Positions 2,729 through 60,863 of a DNA stretch of 64,000 bases are shown here, piece by piece (the first letter of the stretch is position 1; each line of letters begins with the position of its first letter). A program made the position numbers and the translations under genes. The DNA lies in contig CAMJRR010000012.1 in NCBI GenBank assembly GCA_946408345.1, positions 1,993-65,992 on the forward strand, written 5' to 3'. Below the pieces are notes generated by a model. It searched no databases, was not told the DNA's origin, and worked only from the letters and a program-made list of their open reading frames with translations. This DNA is from an uncultured Bacteroidales bacterium (lineage in GTDB: Bacteria; Bacteroidota; Bacteroidia; Bacteroidales; F082).

Positions 2729-3157
2729 TTATAAATCCCTTACCATTTTGGAATGTTCAATGTCTTTCTCGTGTATCATCAGTTTTAGCCCTTTGTATGG
2801 GCAGACCCATTGATTATCTTTTATAAGTTTCCGTTTTACTAACTCTCTATAGGCAAGTAGAAACTTTCCCAAGGTTTTTTTGGGCGAATCAGAAGCGACA
2901 AGGAATAGATAATTTTTGGTTGACAAGCCATTTTCTATCCTACGACCATATATGGCTATGTATGAATCAGGAAAGGATATTTCGTGGTCGGTACGAATCA
3001 CGAAGGGCATGTAAGTGTATTCTCCCTTGTCCTCGATGTAATTAGGAAGACTGTCTATTCCATCAAGCAATTGTTGTGAATCCAGGTCTATCTTTGCGTT
3101 TTGCAAACCTTGATTGATTTCTTTTTCCAAATCTTTTTTGCTCATGGTGTTATTCAT
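2729..3157 (-). CDS. hypothetical protein (lysogeny-module cargo)
   Basis: 142-aa ORF whose start overlaps the repressor gene stop by 4 nt (3154-3157). No recognisable motif. Confidence 0.65.
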   Translation of the reverse strand: MNNTMSKKDLEKEINQGLQNAKIDLDSQQLLDGIDSLPNYIEDKGEYTYMPFVIRTDHEISFPDSYIAIYGRRIENGLSTKNYLFLVASDSPKKTLGKFLLAYRELVKRKLIKDNQWVCPYKGLKLMIHEKDIEHSKMVRDL

Positions 3158-3507
3158 TTCAGTTTATTCTGTTCGATGATTTTCAAGAGTCTATCAATCT
3201 GCTTGTCTTTTTCCTTCAGTTGTTCCCTCAAAGCCTTAATAGCCTCGTTAGAGTTTTGTGTGTTTCCACCGCTAATGTGAGAGGCATAGTTGCCATTTCC
3301 AAAAGATGAAGTTTCTTCTTCCCAACCATAAAACTCATTTGGGGAAATACCAATGAACTCACAAAGAAGGGGAACTTTAGAAAAACTCATAGTTCCATCT
3401 TCATAAGCTATTTTCCAACTGTTTTCTGCATAACCGGCAATTTTTGCAGCATCTTTTACCTTCTTTTTGTTTCTTTGAATAATTGATTTTAATTCATTGT
3501 AATTCAT
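3154..3507 (-). CDS. CI-like HTH transcriptional repressor
   Basis: 117 aa. N-terminal HTH-like segment is KVKDAAKIAGYAENSWKIAYEDGTMSFSKVPLLCEFIGISPNEFY. The C-terminal part looks coiled-coil. It is divergent from the early operon. Confidence 0.7.
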   Translation of the reverse strand: MNYNELKSIIQRNKKKVKDAAKIAGYAENSWKIAYEDGTMSFSKVPLLCEFIGISPNEFYGWEEETSSFGNGNYASHISGGNTQNSNEAIKALREQLKEKDKQIDRLLKIIEQNKLK

Positions 3508-3532: not shown

Positions 3533-3570
3533 TTTCCAAAGATTTATCTTTGTTTCCAAAGATTTATCTT
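3533..3570. repeat. two 18-bp direct repeats in the immunity switch region (candidate operators)
   Basis: TTTCCAAAGATTTATCTT occurs at 3533-3550 and 3553-3570. The second copy abuts the rightward -7 box. Confidence 0.6.
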
Positions 3571-3577
3571 ACTTTTG
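3570..3577 (+). promoter_or_regulatory. Bacteroidota -7 promoter box (TAnnTTTG) for the early rightward operon
   Basis: TACTTTTG, 45 nt upstream of ATG 3622. Confidence 0.55.
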
Positions 3578-3843: not shown

Positions 3844-4043
3844 ACAAGAATATTGAGGCTTTTGTCCAAAGCATAACAGAGTGCGGCGGCGACCAGTCGT
3901 ATGCCGTTGAGTTAGCGGTCGCCCTCGCTCAATCCGAGTTGGAGTCGAGGATAATACACGCCAAAACGGAATTTTCCAATGAATTGTCGAAGATGAGCTG
4001 CTGGGAGTTGCGGCAAATCATCGAGGAAGGAGGCAACCAATGA
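3840..4043 (+). CDS. hypothetical early protein
   Basis: 67 aa. GGAGG-N6-ATGA junction with the upstream gene. Confidence 0.6.
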   Translation: MNKNIEAFVQSITECGGDQSYAVELAVALAQSELESRIIHAKTEFSNELSKMSCWELRQIIEEGGNQ

Positions 4044-4156
4044 GCCGTAACTACAACCTCGATTGGGATGACTATGCCGCCATCGACGCATGGGGCGAAG
4101 GCGCTGCCGACACCTATGCCGTCGATTTCAACGGATGCTGGTACAAAAACGAATGA
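4040..4156 (+). CDS. hypothetical small early protein (38 aa)
   Basis: Hand-translated MSRNYNLDWDDYAAIDAWGEGAADTYAVDFNGCWYKNE. GGAGG-N6-ATGA junction. Confidence 0.45.
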   Translation: MSRNYNLDWDDYAAIDAWGEGAADTYAVDFNGCWYKNE

Positions 4157-4229
4157 GGTTCGGCAAAACCATAAACCGCCACACCTCTACCGAGAGTCTT
4201 CGCATTGCCCCTCGGCATGTGTGGCAAAA

Positions 4230-4305
4230 GGGTTGGTAATGGAGCAGACAGGAACTTTCTATACCATATTAACCTAGTCTGGCGGTTCGATTCCGCTCCA
4301 ACCCA
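4230..4305 (+). ncRNA. tRNA-like element, non-canonical (no assignable anticodon arm)
   Basis: 76 nt. Perfect 7-bp acceptor (GGGTTGG/CCAACCC), U8, A14 and a canonical T arm (GGCGG-TTCGATT-CCGCT). The interior instead forms ATGG/CCAT around a 21-nt loop. Confidence 0.5.
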
Positions 4306-4331
4306 CACTCTAACTCAAAATCAACAACACT

Positions 4332-4715
4332 ATGGACGAATACAAATTCAAACCCTTGGAAGACTGGCTCAAGGAAGTCAGACAAGACGACTGCGACAGC
4401 TTCGTTGCCATTGCGGTCAACAAAGACCACAAGCTCTGCGCCTCGGTGCAAACCGATTATAATGATATGGTGCTCATGCTGATGACAGCCTGCCACAAGA
4501 ACCCACCATTCGCAACAGCCATCATGACCGTGGCAACATTGCTATCCAAAGAGGCCAAACAAGGTTGCCACAACTGCCAGCACGCGGGCCTCTTAGGCGG
4601 CAACGAGAAAAACCCCGTGGCCGTGGCCCACTGCATCATCCACAAAAAGAACCACCGCCTGCCTCACGGCTGCGACGACTGGAAAAAACGCGAAGAGAAA
4701 GGAGACCAGCAATGA
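4332..4715 (+). CDS. hypothetical early protein, Cys/His-rich C-terminus
   Basis: 127-aa ORF. CHNCQH...HCIIHKKNHRLPHGC. Confidence 0.65.
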   Translation: MDEYKFKPLEDWLKEVRQDDCDSFVAIAVNKDHKLCASVQTDYNDMVLMLMTACHKNPPFATAIMTVATLLSKEAKQGCHNCQHAGLLGGNEKNPVAVAHCIIHKKNHRLPHGCDDWKKREEKGDQQ

Positions 4716-7979: not shown

Positions 7980-8495
7980 ATGATGTACTACAAGATTAGC
8001 AACAAAAAGAGCAAAACCTACAAAAAGTGCCACGAACTTCGCACGGAAGAACTGAAAATGGAAAAAGAAAACGCCAAGCGAGTCCGTGAGATTGTTGGCG
8101 ACGATTGGGACCACTTCTGCGGATGGAGTGGTCAACAGAACATCGACCGGGTTACTTGGTATAACGGTTTTGCCTTCAAAGACCCGTCCAAACTGTCAAA
8201 CGCATGGAAAAAGCACAAAGAGTATCCAGATATTTATGTTCCCAATACAAGGACGAAGGCTGGGAAAAAGATAAAAGAGGAATTGAATAATCTACAACGG
8301 TCGTGTTTCTATAGGGTACTGGAAATATTCGGATTGCAAGTGATTGGCAGGTTCAGCTATCCATATATGGAGATATGCGATAGTGGAGAGATAGTATTGG
8401 CCATGGATGACCAATTCAATTTTGACAATTTCCCCGAGGTCATAGAAATCACCAAGAGAGAAGCCGAAAGGCTGCTGAAAGGAGGGGAGGAATGA
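7980..8495 (+). CDS. hypothetical early protein
   Basis: 171 aa. GGAGG sits 6 nt upstream of the ATG. Confidence 0.65.
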   Translation: MMYYKISNKKSKTYKKCHELRTEELKMEKENAKRVREIVGDDWDHFCGWSGQQNIDRVTWYNGFAFKDPSKLSNAWKKHKEYPDIYVPNTRTKAGKKIKEELNNLQRSCFYRVLEIFGLQVIGRFSYPYMEICDSGEIVLAMDDQFNFDNFPEVIEITKREAERLLKGGEE

Positions 8496-10087
8496 TCCGC
8501 CTTCTCTACATCGACCTCTTTTGTGGTGCTGGTGGCACCACCACGGGCGTTGAAGCTGCCCGCATTGGCGGCAAGAAATGCGCAAAGGTGATTGCCTGCG
8601 TCAACCACGACGCCAACGCCATCCGTAGCCATGCCGCCAACCACCCCGACGCGCTCCACTTCACCGAGGACATCCGCACACTCGACATTGCGCCATTAGC
8701 CGCTCACCTGGCCAAGTGCCGCAAGCTCTATCCAGGTGCAAAGGTGGTGCTGTGGGCTTCGCTCGAATGCACCAACTTCAGCAAGGCCAAAGGTGGCTTG
8801 CCGCGTGATGCCGACAGCCGCACCCTCGCCGAACACCTCTTCCGTTACATCGAAGCCCTCAGCCCCGATTACATCCAAATCGAAAACGTGGAGGAGTTCA
8901 TGAGCTGGGGCGACATGGACGAACACGGCCACCCCATCAGCCGCGACCGTGGCCGCAGCTTCATGGCGTGGGTCAACCATGTGCGCGACTACGGCTATTA
9001 CTTCGACTACCGCATCCTCAATGCCGCCGACTATGGCGCCTACACCAGCCGCAAACGCTTCTTTGCCATCTTCGGCAAGAAAGGTCTGCCCGTGGTGTTC
9101 CCCGTGGCCACCTACGCAAAAAACGGCAACGAGGGACTGGAAATCTTCGGCGACACGATGTATCACAAATGGAAGCCCGTGCTCGAAGTTCTCGACCTTG
9201 ACGACGAAGGCACGAGCATCTTCACCCGCAAGAAACCCTTGTGCGAAAAGACCCTCAAACGCATCTATGCCGGACTGATCAAGTTTGTGGCTCACGGCAA
9301 AGACAATTTCCTCGTGAAGTACAACTCGATGAACCAAAGGGGCGAATATGTCGCGCCTGGCACTGACGAGCCAAGCCCAACCGTGGCCGTCCAGAACCGC
9401 CTTGGATTCGCCAAGGTGCAGTTCCTCAGCAAACACTTCAGCGGCGACCCCGCCAGCAAGAACACCAGCGTAGACCAGCCTGCCGGAACACTCACTTGCA
9501 AGTGCAACCAGTCGTTCATCACGGCCTATTACAGCAACGGCGACAACTGCACCCCGATTGACAGGCCGGCGCCGACCATCCCCGCCCAGGATCGTGTTGC
9601 CTTGGTCACCACGCAGTTCTACCAAAACGAGTATGGCGCAGGCGGCCAACTCTCCAGCCTTGACCAACCCAATCCCACCGTGATGCCAACACCCAAGCAG
9701 AAATTGGTGTCGGTCAAGCAGTACCTCATGAACCCCCAGTTCGACAGTGCCGGTGGCAGCATCGACCAGCCTTGTTTCACCCTCATTGCCCGCATGGATA
9801 AAATGCCGCCCTATCTCGTCACCACCAAGGAGGGTGTCGGCATTGCCATCTTTGAGGACGACTCGCCGATGACCGTCAAGATAAAGGAGTTCATGGCCTT
9901 GTATAACATCGTCGACATCCGTATGCGGATGCTGAAGGTGGACGAACTGAAGCGCATCATGGGTTTCCCGACCGACTATGTGTTAATCGGCACCCAGAGC
10001 GAACAAAAGAAATTCATCGGCAACGCGGTCGAGGTCGGCATGGCCAGGCAGCTTTGCGAAACATTAGCTAATTGTGTGAGAGTATGA
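8492..10087 (+). CDS. DNA (cytosine-5)-methyltransferase
   Basis: 531 aa. Motifs DLFCGAGG (I), LECTNFS (catalytic Cys, IV), IENV (VI) and SRKRFF (VIII). No adjacent endonuclease gene. Confidence 0.85.
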   Translation: MIRLLYIDLFCGAGGTTTGVEAARIGGKKCAKVIACVNHDANAIRSHAANHPDALHFTEDIRTLDIAPLAAHLAKCRKLYPGAKVVLWASLECTNFSKAKGGLPRDADSRTLAEHLFRYIEALSPDYIQIENVEEFMSWGDMDEHGHPISRDRGRSFMAWVNHVRDYGYYFDYRILNAADYGAYTSRKRFFAIFGKKGLPVVFPVATYAKNGNEGLEIFGDTMYHKWKPVLEVLDLDDEGTSIFTRKKPLCEKTLKRIYAGLIKFVAHGKDNFLVKYNSMNQRGEYVAPGTDEPSPTVAVQNRLGFAKVQFLSKHFSGDPASKNTSVDQPAGTLTCKCNQSFITAYYSNGDNCTPIDRPAPTIPAQDRVALVTTQFYQNEYGAGGQLSSLDQPNPTVMPTPKQKLVSVKQYLMNPQFDSAGGSIDQPCFTLIARMDKMPPYLVTTKEGVGIAIFEDDSPMTVKIKEFMALYNIVDIRMRMLKVDELKRIMGFPTDYVLIGTQSEQKKFIGNAVEVGMARQLCETLANCVRV

Positions 10088-10455
10088 ACGATTTTGGTAG
10101 CATATACAGAACGAGAAAGGCATGGAATGACACATGCCTGGCGGCTGGAATCCCTTCTATCAGCACCGACACATCCGCAAGGATCATGGCCGTGCTTTAT
10201 GTTCATGGCAATAACGAGGCGTTTACTTTCAACCAAAAGTTTGTCGCCGATATGGAATACATTCAGAAGCGCTTCCATATTGAAGGAGCAGGAACACCAT
10301 CTTGTGATTTCGTTGACTTATTGATAGAGTATGTGTCTGAACTCGAACAATACGCCCTACAGCATAAAAATGAAAGCAAGGAGGCCGTGTTTTCGGACGG
10401 CAAACCCCAATGGGCGATTGACTTATTCAAGGAAATGTATAACATCAAAATTTAA
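10084..10455 (+). CDS. hypothetical protein, paralog of 34839-35186
   Basis: 123 aa from ATG 10084 (ATGA overlap). It aligns by eye with the 115-aa product of 34839-35186: W.E/D.CL..G.P....T..SARIMA.L...GNNEA...FKEMYNI. Confidence 0.65.
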   Translation: MNDFGSIYRTRKAWNDTCLAAGIPSISTDTSARIMAVLYVHGNNEAFTFNQKFVADMEYIQKRFHIEGAGTPSCDFVDLLIEYVSELEQYALQHKNESKEAVFSDGKPQWAIDLFKEMYNIKI

Positions 10456-10459
10456 TATT

Positions 10460-11344
10460 ATGATATACGGTTATTTAAGAGTTTCATCAGACGATCAAGA
10501 TGTAAACTCGCAAAAACAAGGTGTGGAAAAGTTTGCCGAACTGCGTGGGTGGAAAATTGAAGAATATATTTCCGATGAAGGTATAAGTGGTGGTAAAGAC
10601 CCAGATAAGCGTAAACTCGGCCCGTTGCTAAAGAAACTTAAAAAAGATGATATTGTTATCGCATCTGAAATAAGTCGCCTAGGCCGTGACCTTTACATGG
10701 TGATGGACATCTTGCACTTCTGCATGAAAATGGAATGCAAGATTTACACGGTCAAAGACAACTTTGCGCTTGATGATAATATACAATCGAAGGTACTCGC
10801 TTTTGCATTTGGCCTCGCCGCTGAAATCGAGCGTCAGATGATCCGCCAACGAACCCGAGAAGGTCTGCGTCTTCGTATGAAGATGGGTGTGTTGCTTGGC
10901 AGACCAATCGGAGCAACCAACAGCGAGGAAGCACAGAAGTACGGCGAATGGAAAGACCGTGTGAAGCAAATGGTGGAATGGCAGATGCAGCCACGACAGA
11001 TTGCTGACATTATCGGTTGCGATCGTAACACCGTCAACCGCCTTGTCGCTCGTTGGGGCTTCGGAAAGGAGTGGAAGTACAAAACCGAGTGGGCAAAGAA
11101 CGATAACAAACAGCGTGGCATCACCAGACAGCCAACCTACAAAGACGAACCCTACAAGATTGTGCAACTGAATCGTGAACGTGTCCGCAAGATGATAGAA
11201 GCCGACATGACCATTCCACAGATTGCAGAAGAATTTCCCATGTACACTTACGAGCAGGTATATGACACTATTCTTTGTGACTATGAATTCAACCCCCTGT
11301 ATCGTCATCACGGTCAATTAAAAGTCAAAAAAGTAAAGAAATAA
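10460..11344 (+). CDS. serine recombinase (resolvase/invertase family) with extended C-terminus
   Basis: 294 aa. MIYGYLRVSSDDQ carries the catalytic Ser. Also EISRLGRD and the HTH RQIADIIGCDRNTVNRLV. Confidence 0.85.
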   Translation: MIYGYLRVSSDDQDVNSQKQGVEKFAELRGWKIEEYISDEGISGGKDPDKRKLGPLLKKLKKDDIVIASEISRLGRDLYMVMDILHFCMKMECKIYTVKDNFALDDNIQSKVLAFAFGLAAEIERQMIRQRTREGLRLRMKMGVLLGRPIGATNSEEAQKYGEWKDRVKQMVEWQMQPRQIADIIGCDRNTVNRLVARWGFGKEWKYKTEWAKNDNKQRGITRQPTYKDEPYKIVQLNRERVRKMIEADMTIPQIAEEFPMYTYEQVYDTILCDYEFNPLYRHHGQLKVKKVKK

Positions 11345-25952: not shown

Positions 25953-26137
25953 GTTCAAACTATTCGCGGCGTAAGATGACAGCCGCACCAACAGCGGCAT
26001 TTTTTATGCCTATACATATCGATGATTAACAGAGCCAACGGCTCCGAGGGACGCGGTAGCAGTAATGCCCGTAAGGTTTGCGAATAGACCTGAACACCCC
26101 TATCGGAGCCTATTTTGTTCAATGTTCAAACTATTCG
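25953..26137 (+). promoter_or_regulatory. structured 5' leader (box / anti-box / box) of ORF 26115-26546
   Basis: The 14-mer GTTCAAACTATTCG occurs at 25953-25966 and 26124-26137. An imperfect complement lies at 26081-26095. A helix pairs 26040-26050 with 26097-26110. A terminator-like hairpin plus T-run lies at 25982-26005. Confidence 0.55.
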
Positions 26138-33909: not shown

Positions 33910-34148
33910 TGTTCTTTGACAAAGCTGTTTCATAATTTATAGATTTTGAGTTAGTGCGCCGCCCAAGGCCATCTCCATAGTTGTTGATGGCACAGGCGGC
34001 AAAAACACGCTCCAAGGCTTGTGGGTGCCGCCGTTGCCCTTGTCGTAACGGATTGCACCACGTCTGACCGCAAGCATACTTTGGAGCGAACAACACTCCC
34101 CGAAGGATGGACATCCCGAAAATTTGGCGCATTCCTGAGGGGAGACGA

Positions 34149-34221
34149 TGCGGGGTAGAGCAGCGGCCAGCTCACTGGGCTCATATCCCAGAGGTCGGCG
34201 GTTCGAATCCGTCCCCCGCTA
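34149..34221 (+). tRNA. tRNA-Met(CAT), initiator type
   Basis: The cloverleaf fits standard numbering. T1:T72 is mismatched, A11:T24 pairs, and three G:C pairs (29-31/39-41) close the anticodon stem. The loop is CTCATAT and the T loop TTCGAAT. No CCA is encoded. Confidence 0.85.
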
Positions 34222-34296
34222 CAAGGAGAGCGTTTAGATGTCCCGGCAAACTCCTAACCAAACAGGCAACATCAAGTGAGTGAGAATCTCACAAAC

Positions 34297-34401
34297 GGGG
34301 ATGTCGCCCAGAGGCAGGGCATTCCGTGTAAAGGGTAGCAGAACAGAAGCACGGAGTAATAGTTCGCTTGAGAGACGCGGGTTCGAATCCCGCTTTCCCC
34401 A
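34297..34401 (+). ncRNA. aberrant 105-nt tRNA-like element
   Basis: Good D arm (GCCC-AGAGGCA-GGGC) and T arm (GCGGG-TTCGAAT-CCCGC). The acceptor GGGGATG/TTTCCCC is imperfect. The anticodon position holds an 8-bp stem with a 21-nt loop, followed by a 20-nt linker. Confidence 0.45.
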
Positions 34402-34838
34402 CCGTTCCTTCAGCCGTAGGGATATGGCTGTCGCAAAGAGACAACACATTATTATTCACTTAATCAAAGCCGGTGCAAAAGGACACCGTCGGGTGCGAGC
34501 CCCGCGATTTTCTTTTTGTTGTGACAAATGAGATGCAGAGTATAGATGGCGTTGTCTTCTGATTTTTCCACACTCGCAGCTACGGGCAACGGGCGACGGC
34601 AACGCCGCCCTGGTCCCACAAAAGCTACGAAGACAAACGGAAGGGTTAGACCTCCAAAGGGGAGGTGAGATAAGTACCCCATGGTGTGCAGGTTTGGATT
34701 AAAGTGCTCGGGACTGCACACCACGCTTACCGGAAGCTTGGCCCGCCGTTCGACTCGGCACCCTTCCACGTTCTGGACTCGCCAAAACTCGACTACTACT
34801 AACAAGAAAGCTCACCGCCCGCCAAGGCCAGCTTATCA

Positions 34839-35186
34839 ATGTCCAAAGGTGGTACAGCGGGCAACTTTGAAACGATGGACAATTTGAGGGAACAATGGAA
34901 TGAAGCATGCCTGCAAACCGGGCTACCCGCCTTGACACTTGCAACGAGCGCAAGGCTGATGGCGATACTGATGCACTTCGGCAACAACGAAGCCCTGGTG
35001 CTTTCGCCCAACTTCCGCGCCGACTGCAAATACATAAAGATCCGCTACCATTTGCGAGGTAGCGAGGTGCCCGACCCCGAATTTGCGGAGGCGTTCAGAC
35101 CTGTAGAGAAAGAGTTGCGAGACCTTGACCAACCGCCTGAATGGGCCGTCAGACTGATGAAAGAAATGTATAATATCAACCTATAA
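34839..35186 (+). CDS. hypothetical protein, paralog of 10084-10455
   Basis: 115 aa. Shared blocks include SARLMAILMHFGNNEA and LMKEMYNI. Confidence 0.65.
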   Translation: MSKGGTAGNFETMDNLREQWNEACLQTGLPALTLATSARLMAILMHFGNNEALVLSPNFRADCKYIKIRYHLRGSEVPDPEFAEAFRPVEKELRDLDQPPEWAVRLMKEMYNINL

Positions 35187-59536: not shown

Positions 59537-60709
59537 TCAACCTTCACGGCTGAATGCCGGTGCCTTCGTGCTGATGGTATCAACCAATCGAGGATCCGCG
59601 TGGTTGGCATAGCGCGTGGTTATGCTCAGGTCGTGGTGGTCGGCGTGCTGCATGACGCTCAGCGCGTCAATGCCGCCTTTAAGCATCTCGTTGATACCAG
59701 TGTCGCGCAATGAATACAGCTGCATCTCGTCAGGCAACCCCAACGCCTCACGCATGTCCTGCCAATCCTTGCGGAATCGGCTGTAGGCCATCTGTTTCTT
59801 CCCTGGCATGTAGCCGTCGGAAAAGAGGTAGTCGCTCTTGTTGGCGTGTCGCGTCATCTTCTCCAGCCTCGTGACGAGTTCCGGAGTGAGTGACGGACTT
59901 CGCCGATAGTGTGTCTTGCTGTCATCCTCGCTTACCTCTATATATCGGTCGGCCAGCATCAGGTCTGACACATGCAGCCGCCAACACTCCTTCGGGCGTA
60001 TCAACGCCGAGAATACCAGTTCGCAAAGGACAATGTAATTCTCGTTGCGCTCCGACCAATACTTGTAGATTTCCTTCCTGACCTCGTGAGGCACCATGAT
60101 ACGCTTCTTGCCTTCCTCGCGCTTAGTCTTGATGGAGGCAAAGGGGTTTTCTTTGCAATAGAATTTCTCTATGGCGTAGGTGAAGAATGCCCGTGCTTGC
60201 TTCAGACGGTTGTTGTAGCTTCGACCATGCAAGCCTTTTTCCTGCACGATGAAGTCCATGAAGTTGGTGGCCATCACGCGGTTGAAGCCCGAAATGGCAA
60301 TCTTGCCATAGTTCTTTTCCACCCATTCCTTAAACACCTTGACGAAAGAGCGGTAATTGATCAAGGTGTCGGGGCGCACGTCGCCCGCTTTGTCGACCAG
60401 GTATTTGTCGAGCACGGCATTGATGGGTGTCAGCTCACGCGAATTGCCGGCACATCCCTCGAAGGGATTCCAGCCCGTGGCCAACTGTGTGTTTAGCCTG
60501 GTGATGACATCGGCGCAATAGGCCTTGAAGTCGGAGACTCTCGAATACTTCTTACGGATGCGGTTCATCTTGATCACCCGTCTTTCCATCGCATTGAAAG
60601 CCGGATTGAACACGCGGTATTCGATGGTCCAGCCATGCGCCGTGTATTTCAGCGATGCCGGAAGGTAGCTGATGAGAGGTTGAGAGTTTTGGGTTTTGAC
60701 GAGACACAT
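59537..60709 (-). CDS. int: tyrosine-type site-specific integrase
   Basis: 390 aa. ALIRPKE (Arg), YSLRDTG and HADHHDLSITTRY (His...Tyr). It is adjacent to attR and the tRNA. Confidence 0.85.
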   Translation of the reverse strand: MCLVKTQNSQPLISYLPASLKYTAHGWTIEYRVFNPAFNAMERRVIKMNRIRKKYSRVSDFKAYCADVITRLNTQLATGWNPFEGCAGNSRELTPINAVLDKYLVDKAGDVRPDTLINYRSFVKVFKEWVEKNYGKIAISGFNRVMATNFMDFIVQEKGLHGRSYNNRLKQARAFFTYAIEKFYCKENPFASIKTKREEGKKRIMVPHEVRKEIYKYWSERNENYIVLCELVFSALIRPKECWRLHVSDLMLADRYIEVSEDDSKTHYRRSPSLTPELVTRLEKMTRHANKSDYLFSDGYMPGKKQMAYSRFRKDWQDMREALGLPDEMQLYSLRDTGINEMLKGGIDALSVMQHADHHDLSITTRYANHADPRLVDTISTKAPAFSREG

Positions 60710-60834: not shown

Positions 60835-60863
60835 GTGGGACGTACTGGACTCGAACCAGTGAC
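60835..60863. repeat. attR core (within the tRNA-Val 3' end)
   Basis: Identical to 2185-2213. Confidence 0.9.

Follow-up and report, generated by a model that had tools for sequence, protein, structure and literature searches.

The stretch of DNA analysed here, 64,000 nucleotides (nt) of contig CAMJRR010000012.1 (from here on the window), holds a prophage of ~58.7 kb bounded by a 29-bp direct repeat (2185–2213, the same as 60835–60863). Within the early operon of this prophage, on the + strand, a 176-nt gap separates an open reading frame (ORF) of 38 amino acids (aa) (4040–4156), the ATGA start of which overlaps the stop of the preceding ORF, from a gene encoding a protein of 127 aa (4332–4715). 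The gap contains a hairpin, named U1 (4178–4225), and directly downstream of it a 76-nt element in the shape of a tRNA (4230–4305, referred to as type A), which is co-oriented with the operon. This element is a tRNA-shaped, gene-like RNA unit that is unable to decode, and the best reading of it is a discrete, presumably horizontally acquired cassette carrying a tRNA mimic and not a decoding tRNA.

Anatomy of the element at 4230–4305

The layout of the element on the + strand is GGGTTGG-TAATGGAGC-AGACAGG-AACTTTCTATACCATATTAA-CCTAGTCT-GGCGG-TTCGATT-CCGCT-CCAACCC-A. The 5' strand of the acceptor stem, GGGTTGG (4230–4236), pairs with the 3' strand CCAACCC (4298–4304) in seven out of seven Watson-Crick pairs with pair probabilities of 0.97–1.0, and the latter is followed by the discriminator A4305, which is counted in the 76 nt, and then by CAC. 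CCA is not encoded, and since the genuine tRNAs of the window likewise lack an encoded CCA this absence fits the local tRNA genes. The T arm GGCGG-TTCGATT-CCGCT (4281–4297) aligns to the T arm of the Rfam tRNA model with posterior marks '*', and its 5-bp stem consists of one G·U and four G-C pairs, G53-C61 among them, with a pair probability of 0.82 for four pairs. An earlier reading of this DNA, made from the letters alone (the sequence-only reading), had proposed a perfect 7-bp acceptor stem, U8 and a canonical T arm, and all three were borne out; the 'exact tRNA length' that it also proposed has to be corrected, as 76 nt with the discriminator and without CCA is ~3 nt above that of a standard CCA-less tRNA.

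The acceptor and the T arm are separated by no more than 44 nt. The first nine of these, the linker UAAUGGAGC (4237–4245, positions 8–16), contain U8 and a GG dinucleotide, are single-stranded in the minimum free energy, centroid and constrained folds and stand for the D arm. The rest (4246–4280) forms a single long helix with its loop, replacing the anticodon and variable arms, in which AGACAGG pairs with CCU-A-GUCU (A17–G23/C44–U51; 7–8 bp, one bulged A) with probabilities of at least 0.94. The loop capping this helix is A/U-rich and comprises 20 nt, AACUUUCUAUACCAUAUUAA, while the helix itself directly adjoins the T stem. With a fold energy (dG) of -24.4 kcal/mol (z = -2.66) the predicted architecture would be a three-way junction in which the acceptor, one long arm and the T arm meet and a single-stranded stretch is the analogue of the D loop.

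A different interior, an ATGG/CCAT helix around a 21-nt loop, had been drawn in the sequence-only reading. Such a helix is drawable but its pair probability is 0.01 and its fold has a dG of -18.5 kcal/mol versus -24.4, and it was rejected on both energy and pair probability. The same reading had pointed to a motif, AGCAGA(A)CAG(G)AA, shared with a second aberrant element at 34297–34401, and had taken it to suggest a related family rather than random decay. The motif is indeed common to both elements and occurs at no other place in the window, but relatedness does not follow from it; when aligned locally the two interiors give a best score of 9.5, a value that shuffled pairs reach in 7.6% of cases and random 55-mers of the window in 5.7%, and the motif lies mostly within the helix in 4230–4305 and within the loop in 34297–34401. 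As its level is that of chance by shuffling it was rejected as a family signature. The idea of a family as such is supported by a wider set of aberrant tRNA-like elements, described below, but not by the shared motif or the proposed fold.

A comparison with Rfam using Infernal, which had been suggested as a check, gave a divided answer. The alignment to the tRNA model (RF00005) spans exactly 4230–4305, but through the acceptor and T arms only, and its score of 27.9 bits (E = 3.7e-4 in a 191-nt search) lies under the gathering score of 29; a scan of the window at gathering thresholds consequently has no entry for the element. ARAGORN was silent on it in default mode, with lowered thresholds (-ps) and in the intron (-i) and tmRNA (transfer-messenger RNA; -m) modes, and an intron-containing tRNA was dropped as an explanation because of the negative -i run. 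No D arm with a 3–4-bp stem and a 7–11-nt loop could be recognised, the D-stem pairs being flagged as non-canonical by cmscan, and no anticodon arm with a 5-bp stem and a 7-nt loop either, the region being not alignable in cmscan and negative in ARAGORN. The earlier claim that no anticodon arm can be drawn was in this way confirmed, relaxed and intron modes included.

The top half of the element was also searched for with a strict descriptor, demanding 7/7 acceptor pairs, 5/5 T-stem pairs and a TTCRANN loop, with the T arm abutting the acceptor strand, in a total of 70–82 nt. The window contains two matches, 4230–4305 and a real tRNA-Val, compared to 0.03 per shuffled window (1,000 shuffles). 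The tRNA-shaped top half of 4230–4305 is real and beyond chance, while the element as a whole lies outside the tRNA, tmRNA and c4 families, as it lacks defining features of each.

Cassette exchange, leader hairpins and related elements

Seventy fetched loci, designated by L numbers, were used for comparison, and two assemblies are 100% identical to the window. Homology with L003 stops at 4232 and resumes at 4307, and with L004, L005, L006, L010 and L011 it resumes at 4312–4318. As homology breaks within a few bases of both ends, 4230–4305 can be described as a discrete cassette, and the unit gained would essentially be the tRNA-like element itself. At the same site a different anticodon-less tRNA-like element of 111–112 nt is found in L004, L006 and L009 (type B) and in L003 and L062–64 (type B'), L005 has a 51-aa ORF, and in L010, L011, L055–61 and L065 the site is empty. 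That the content of the slot varies in this manner is suggestive of accessory cargo.

Types B and B' have a 7-bp acceptor stem, a D-like hairpin with a RACGGA loop and a T arm. When these three helices were examined across the copies 96% of the cells were paired and five pairs were changed on both sides, giving a covariation score unmatched by any shuffle, and controls in which the pairing was slid collapse. The B' element of L003 has G3:U70 and an ACCA end and reaches 21.3 bits against the Rfam tmRNA model via the tRNA-like domain alone. No further copy of type A was found in a pattern scan of IMG/VR or by blastn against phage records (GGTAATGGAGCAGACAGGAAC is an example of a nucleotide query string for such copies), and its acceptor and T-arm pattern has no match in 185,579 species genomes. 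Neither did blastn-short against all the fetched loci reveal a diverged copy, nor is there one in the loci reached via homologues of the 127-aa or the 38-aa protein.

The leader hairpin U1 (4178–4225, + strand) consists of an outer stem, P1 (GCCACAC/GTGTGGC), an internal loop and an inner helix CCGAG/CUCGG (dG -19.3, z = -3.9). It ends at 4225 and is followed by the spacer AAAA and the 5' end of the tRNA-like element at 4230. In L003, L005, L010, L011 and L065 P1 shows a compensatory change to GCCGCGC/GCGCGGC. In other phages the site of U1 is occupied by a sister hairpin, U2, arranged as P1-CAAGGCC-(variable hairpin)-GGUACA-P1', and because an L055-type hairpin joins the outer stem of U1 to the interior of U2 the two are regarded as variants of one class. 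Homologues of the 38-aa ORF adjoin the hairpin of this site in 20 other fetched loci. A pattern search for U2 gave 4 IMG/VR loci and 39 JGI metagenome loci, with 0.0 matches in shuffled windows, and 41 distinct U2 sequences are present across all fetched loci. The outer stems, although unforced by the pattern, still pair (GCCGCC/GGCGGC, CAGCGC/GCGCTG, GCAGCC/GGCTGC, CCGCGC/GCGCGG and TCCCGC/GCGGGA). Two further U2-type hairpins are located in the window, at 33958–34000 and 34817–34862.

The 5' end of a tRNA or tRNA-like element was found at +4 to +6 nt in 13 of 65 distinct U1/U2 contexts, as compared to 0.86% of random positions in the same loci. These 13 cases represent eight kinds of element, including a genuine initiator-like tRNA-Met in L022, and since the hairpin also leads this genuine tRNA the coupling treats type A like a tRNA. 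The U1/U2 hairpins lie in intergenic regions of the phages and could serve for processing, for antitermination or for the binding of a protein. U1 and U2 match no Rfam family, the hepatitis delta virus (HDV) families included, and the possibility of a known ribozyme (HDV/theta, hammerhead, twister, pistol or hatchet) was rejected on this ground and on inspection of the topology, which does not fit. An Rfam match to RT-17 over U1 and the stretch AGCAGACA (15.4 bits, E = 1.4) was dismissed as chance.

The phage group holds many further tRNA-like RNAs overlooked by ARAGORN. The architecture of type A is found again in a family with the acceptor TGCCGTG...CACGGCA (L045, L047 and L051; 76–82 nt), where the acceptor is followed by a single-stranded linker of 7–10 nt, one long hairpin and the T arm. 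The linkers of L051 and L045 contain GG, the interiors are unrelated in sequence, and the T stem shows a compensatory change. Type C, at 34639–34768 (+ strand), is 130 nt long with the acceptor GGAAGGG/CCCTTCC, two internal hairpins and a T arm with a 4-bp stem and a TTCGACT loop. It is called by neither ARAGORN nor Rfam and is conserved in L012, L015, L018, L024, L025, L029, L031, L033 and L041, with seven pairs changed on both sides. TRNA-like elements of 67 nt and 83 nt occur in L015 and L012, and further families measure 110–142 nt; G3:U70 is found in L012 as well.

The second aberrant element (34297–34401, + strand) scores 40.3 bits against the Rfam tRNA model, a local search reporting tmRNA at 25.3 bits instead. 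The D and T arms are normal, the 'anticodon' stem measures 9 bp and closes a loop of 19 nt, and the variable region comprises 19–20 nt. ARAGORN calls it in intron mode only, as tRNA-Phe(aaa) with a 16-nt intron, and copies with 99% identity are present in L018 and L041. The window has in all three non-canonical tRNA-like elements (4230–4305, 34297–34401 and 34639–34768) next to one real tRNA-Met (34149–34222), which is initiator-like with a U1·U72 mismatch. The tRNA-Met, the latter two elements and the two U2 hairpins are all situated in a stretch of ~1 kb between an OmpA-like gene and the next ORF (33910–34874), where inspection revealed no convincing coding ORF; this stretch also has a hairpin with a T run at ~34472–34520. 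Homologous arrays, with another order and content, are found in L012, L015, L018, L022, L024 and L041.

Some other observations were made among these arrays. ARAGORN reports tRNAs with anticodons of 2 nt ('ct') in L018 (1077–1149, - strand) and 4 nt ('cgcg') in L020 (1477–1549, + strand), and the one in L018 is positioned just upstream of the copy of 34297–34401, at approximately the place of tRNA-Met in the window but unrelated to it in sequence. A tRNA-like element of 142 nt with the acceptor TTCGGTG...CACCGAA (L013, L037, L039, L045 and L051) combines a canonical D arm with an insert of ~88 nt. About 150 nt upstream of it there is a conserved non-coding stretch, …GCCCAGCCGTGAAA.TCGGCAATGTCGAGAAGATGGAAGCGGGTGAAACTCCCG…GGAGAGACAAGGGTGGCTGCCCCCTCGGAGAAGATGCA, for which a search of L013 with Rfam gave no match.

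The 29-bp repeat bounding the prophage is the 3' end of tRNA-Val(CAC) and adjoins a tandem pair of tRNA-Val genes (CAC and GAC). The integrase gene (59537–60709, - strand) encodes a member of a cluster with 154 members at 90% identity. A gene for a Cro/CI-type helix-turn-helix protein (3154–3507, - strand) is divergent from the + strand early operon of small genes, and between this CI-like repressor gene and the operon lie two direct repeats TTTCCAAAGATTTATCT (3533–3549 and 3553–3569), directly followed by the box TACTTTTG (3570–3577, + strand), a probable -7 box of the early promoter. The box matches TAnnTTTG, the Bacteroides -7 consensus, and the repeats are probably operators overlapping a promoter of the Bacteroidota type.

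Within the gap itself (4157–4332) a scan revealed no σ70-type promoter and no intrinsic terminator, and no TAnnTTTG box could be seen by eye. As the gap appears to have no promoter or terminator of its own, 4230–4305 is probably co-transcribed with the early rightward operon. The 26 nt that follow the element (4306–4331) are both spacer and 5' untranslated region of the 127-aa gene, and their …AAAATCAACAACACTATG part is kept in related loci with or without a tRNA-like element. The 127-aa gene lacks a Shine-Dalgarno sequence and for this reason the host of the prophage probably belongs to the Bacteroidota. A 67-aa upstream ORF has no homologue other than itself.

The early or middle region of the prophage also contains a DNA methyltransferase gene (8492–10087; PHROG 116, E = 2e-75) and a gene for a serine recombinase or invertase (10331–11344; PHROG 125, E = 1e-41). 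A c4-2 RNA (RF02944) was identified above the gathering score both in the window (26040–26112, + strand, 46.1 bits) and in L012 (2562–2637, - strand, 47.8 bits), which points to a control module of the P1 type (antisense immunity or antirepressor) in this group of phages. In the relatives L003, L004, L006 and L011 the 3' end of another tRNA (…GTTCAATTCTCGATCCCGCTAC) is present and probably constitutes the attachment (att) site; in L006 it abuts host genes.

Proposed processing and alternative explanations

Bacterial RNase P recognises the acceptor/T minihelix as the core of its substrate, measuring the 12-bp stack together with the T loop, and in 4230–4305 both a 12-bp acceptor/T-stem stack and a canonical T loop are retained. 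We propose, tentatively, that the element is a tRNA mimic transcribed with the operon and then cut out by tRNA-processing enzymes, which from its sequence and context is plausible though short of probable. The host RNase P would cut between 4229 and 4230, 3' trimming and CCA addition would complete the end at ~4305, and a stable tRNA-shaped RNA of ~76–79 nt would be released. At the same time the polycistronic early mRNA would be split, giving the 127-aa gene a new 5' end and leaving an upstream part that would end in the U1 hairpin with a 4-nt tail and should be exonuclease-resistant. By analogy with the other cassettes the released molecule could be a tRNA-scaffolded accessory RNA, with a tRNA-binding enzyme, a defence factor or the product of the 127-aa gene as candidate targets in trans. 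Punctuation by RNase P/Z, one of the roles put forward in the sequence-only reading, gains circumstantial support from the fixed spacing of the hairpin, the lack of a recognisable promoter or terminator and the probable co-transcription.

Several findings weigh against this proposal. Type A is a singleton, known only from three 100%-identical assemblies, and its own helices show no demonstrable selection. The Rfam tRNA score is slightly under the gathering threshold. For a type A RNase P both the A at -1 and the 3' trailer, ACAC instead of RCCA, are suboptimal. The cassette is dispensable, close relatives having the same downstream gene without any tRNA-like element, and an essential punctuation role is for that reason impossible. 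Finally, U hairpins also stand alone in front of genes and consequently have a role that is independent of tRNA-like elements.

The phenomenon extends beyond 4230–4305 and has better support than this element taken singly. The argument for a family is based on the boundaries of the cassette, the compensatory changes in its sisters, the spacing of the hairpin and the three-way architecture without a D arm in the TGCCGTG family. The element at 4230–4305 combines intact acceptor and T arms with the absence of an anticodon arm on the sense strand and has its 5' end 4–6 nt past a U1/U2-type hairpin, while compensatory substitutions in diverged copies were observed for types B/B' and C. It is possible, and is suggested here with some reserve, that 4230–4305 belongs to a class of non-coding phage RNAs which has not been described before and the members of which are natural 'tRNA scaffolds'. 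In such a class the acceptor and T arms would be kept, the D arm would be optional and varied cargo hairpins would replace the anticodon arm; the members would be exchangeable cassettes in prophages of probable Bacteroidota hosts, led by the covarying U1/U2 hairpins. Hairpin and tRNA mimic together would then be a processing and expression module for accessory RNAs, which might serve in counter-defence or host takeover, possibly together with the downstream Cys/His protein.

An alternative that has to be taken seriously, although we regard it as unlikely, is that of a decaying pseudogene, a former phage tRNA with scrambled D and anticodon arms and now without function. The lack of diverged relatives of type A would agree with this, as would the low Rfam score, the silence of ARAGORN and an interior without a recognisable conserved motif, what it has in common with 34297–34401 being at the level of chance; moreover, related phages are without the element and show no obvious consequence. 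Decay should, however, strike all arms, and yet the acceptor and T stems have kept 12 of 12 pairs and the T loop is complete, while the interior has no residual similarity to a D or an anticodon arm and still forms one stable helix, placed exactly at the stacking site of the anticodon stem. No tRNA gene in the species genomes searched shares the acceptor and T arm, which argues against a recent tRNA parent. The sister cassettes at the same site are structurally constrained, the boundaries of the cassette are clean, and the same architecture recurs in the unrelated TGCCGTG family.

Instead of being a relic the RNA could act in trans as a decoy or sponge titrating a host tRNA-binding factor, for instance a nuclease or transferase of a tRNA-targeting defence or an enzyme of tRNA processing or modification, or as the RNA partner of the 127-aa Cys/His protein. 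This would be compatible with excision by tRNA-processing enzymes, of which it would be a functional extension, but as a specific role it is likewise rather unlikely. The 127-aa protein has an N-terminal domain (approximately residues 1–75) and a Cys/His-rich C-terminal domain with the pattern GCHNCQH…HC..H…H…C. It has no Pfam, PHROG, PADLOC or PDB match and only eight homologues, all in ENA or Logan assemblies, relatives being absent from the 185,579 species genomes, IMG/VR and the JGI metagenomes. Among the homologues (L003–L011 and L055–L065) there are natural variants missing one domain or the other, and a tRNA-like element is located upstream of the two-domain form in 8 of 9 aligned loci and of single-domain forms in 0 of 5. 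This co-occurrence hints at a functional link between protein and RNA but derives from few independent evolutionary events. The content of the early-operon slot, which varies among close relatives (A, B, B', a small ORF or nothing) in the manner of an arms race, and the presence of several scaffolds with unrelated inserts also speak for such a role, and phage tRNAs are known to counter tRNA-cleaving defences (PMC10264068, PMC11555353). Those defences act mostly on anticodon or variable loops, however, and both are absent here. Furthermore, no defence-related or tRNA-related protein was recognised near 4230–4305, and the AlphaFold model of the 127-aa protein is uninformative with a pLDDT (predicted local distance difference test) of 51.

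It is improbable that the element is an antisense or regulatory small RNA on a tRNA scaffold, with the 20-nt loop pairing to a phage or host mRNA. The loop is exposed on a stable stem, and the c4-2 RNA at 26040–26112 shows that small-RNA regulation exists in the phage; processing by RNase P is established for the C4 RNAs of P1 and P7 and the CI RNA of P4. When the window, which includes the whole prophage, was searched for antisense targets of the 21-nt loops of the two aberrant elements the best complementary run was 9–10 nt, a chance level considering that ~6 runs of at least 9 nt are expected, and there is no c4-type Rfam match over 4230–4305.

It is very improbable that the element mimics the tRNA-like domain of tmRNA, being aminoacylated and engaging SmpB, EF-Tu or stalled ribosomes. 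The order of acceptor, single-stranded D-loop analogue, helix in place of the anticodon stem and T arm would fit, as would the G3:U70 of B' and L012 and the ACCA end and tmRNA score of B', but type A itself has G3-C70, no encoded CCA and no tag reading frame, and neither Rfam nor the tmRNA mode of ARAGORN recognises it. Least probable of all is a site acting at the DNA level, such as the pseudo-att site once suggested for it or another integration target, or a chance look-alike of a tRNA: 3' halves of tRNAs are common att sites and the prophage itself uses that of tRNA-Val, but the descriptor is expected to match by chance only 0.03 times per window, both acceptor halves are present and on the sense strand of the operon, no inserted element or recombinase gene abuts 4230–4305, and its likeness to the att core at the tRNA-Val 3' end, judged by eye, is limited to a generic T loop and a CCCAC end.

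Comparison with known systems

Non-decoding tRNA mimics of phages are so far only computational candidates, and large surveys have reported unspecified tRNA-like candidates (PMC10690425). The present locus offers a concrete case: the 76-nt cassette in the early operon is clean, its site has natural swap variants in sister phages, and the conserved leader hairpin is found ahead of a genuine tRNA as well. If the element is processed and stable, temperate phages would be using the tRNA maturation of the host to express and stabilise small RNAs and to cut early mRNAs. There would then be a new class of RNA for annotation pipelines, as ARAGORN and Rfam both miss these elements, and a natural tRNA-scaffold design for Bacteroidota. 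If it is not processed, the finding shrinks to an unusually well-preserved tRNA relic.

In its way of working the element would be closest to a tRNA-scaffolded or tRNA-punctuation RNA, and its top half is similar to the tRNA-like domain of tmRNA and to D-armless tRNAs. With the tRNA genes of phages (RF00005) the element has the acceptor, the T stem, the TTCGATT loop, U8, the length and an intergenic place on the sense strand in common; it differs by having neither a D stem nor an anticodon arm. The tRNA-like domain of tmRNA (RF00023) likewise has a single-stranded loop for the D arm, a helix for the anticodon stem and canonical acceptor and T arms. In contrast to tmRNA, 4230–4305 lacks G3:U70, an encoded CCA, an mRNA-like domain and pseudoknots and is 76 nt long versus ~360 nt; weak tmRNA matches were obtained only for B' in L003 and for 34297–34401, via their tRNA-like domains alone.

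In tRNA punctuation and 3'-end formation of the mascRNA/MALAT1 type (PMC8457004) a tRNA-like structure is also situated inside a longer transcript, where the 5' cut by RNase P makes the 3' end of the upstream part. Here a protective hairpin is found 4 nt upstream. Those systems are eukaryotic or organellar, whereas the present cassette is optional in close relatives and its processing is predicted. The Y RNA YrlA (PMC4201824) is likewise a non-decoding tRNA mimic, copying elbow and acceptor, but it ends in a Ro-binding stem and not in an acceptor and is linked to rsr, a gene not seen here. For phages, tRNA-like structured RNA candidates have been predicted with no assigned function (PMC10690425); both they and YrlA (PMC4201824) are known or suspected substrates of tRNA enzymes. 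Theta ribozymes, which are minimal and HDV-like (PMC10879173), provide a precedent for a structured RNA within a few nt of the ends of tRNA genes in gut phages. They are located on the 3' side, U1/U2 on the 5' side, and U1/U2 on inspection is a simple two-helix hairpin with an internal loop that cannot be threaded onto the HDV topology. In the literature searched, neither the hairpin nor hairpin-led cassettes of anticodon-less tRNA mimics were found described for phages.

The C4 and CI RNAs (clan CL00128) are also small structured RNAs from early or immunity operons of phages, with an acceptor-like closing stem and release by tRNA processing. They act by antisense pairing within the same operon, and for 4230–4305 the window has no such sites; between 4150 and 4340 there is no c4-family match at E <= 10, the c4-2 RNA at 26040–26112 being the only one in the window. 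Engineered 'tRNA scaffold' RNAs retain the acceptor and T arms and carry a cargo RNA where the anticodon arm would be. The elements described here likewise have an arbitrary hairpin in place of the anticodon arm, and the sister families carry unrelated inserts, but type A and the TGCCGTG family are natural and also do without a D arm.

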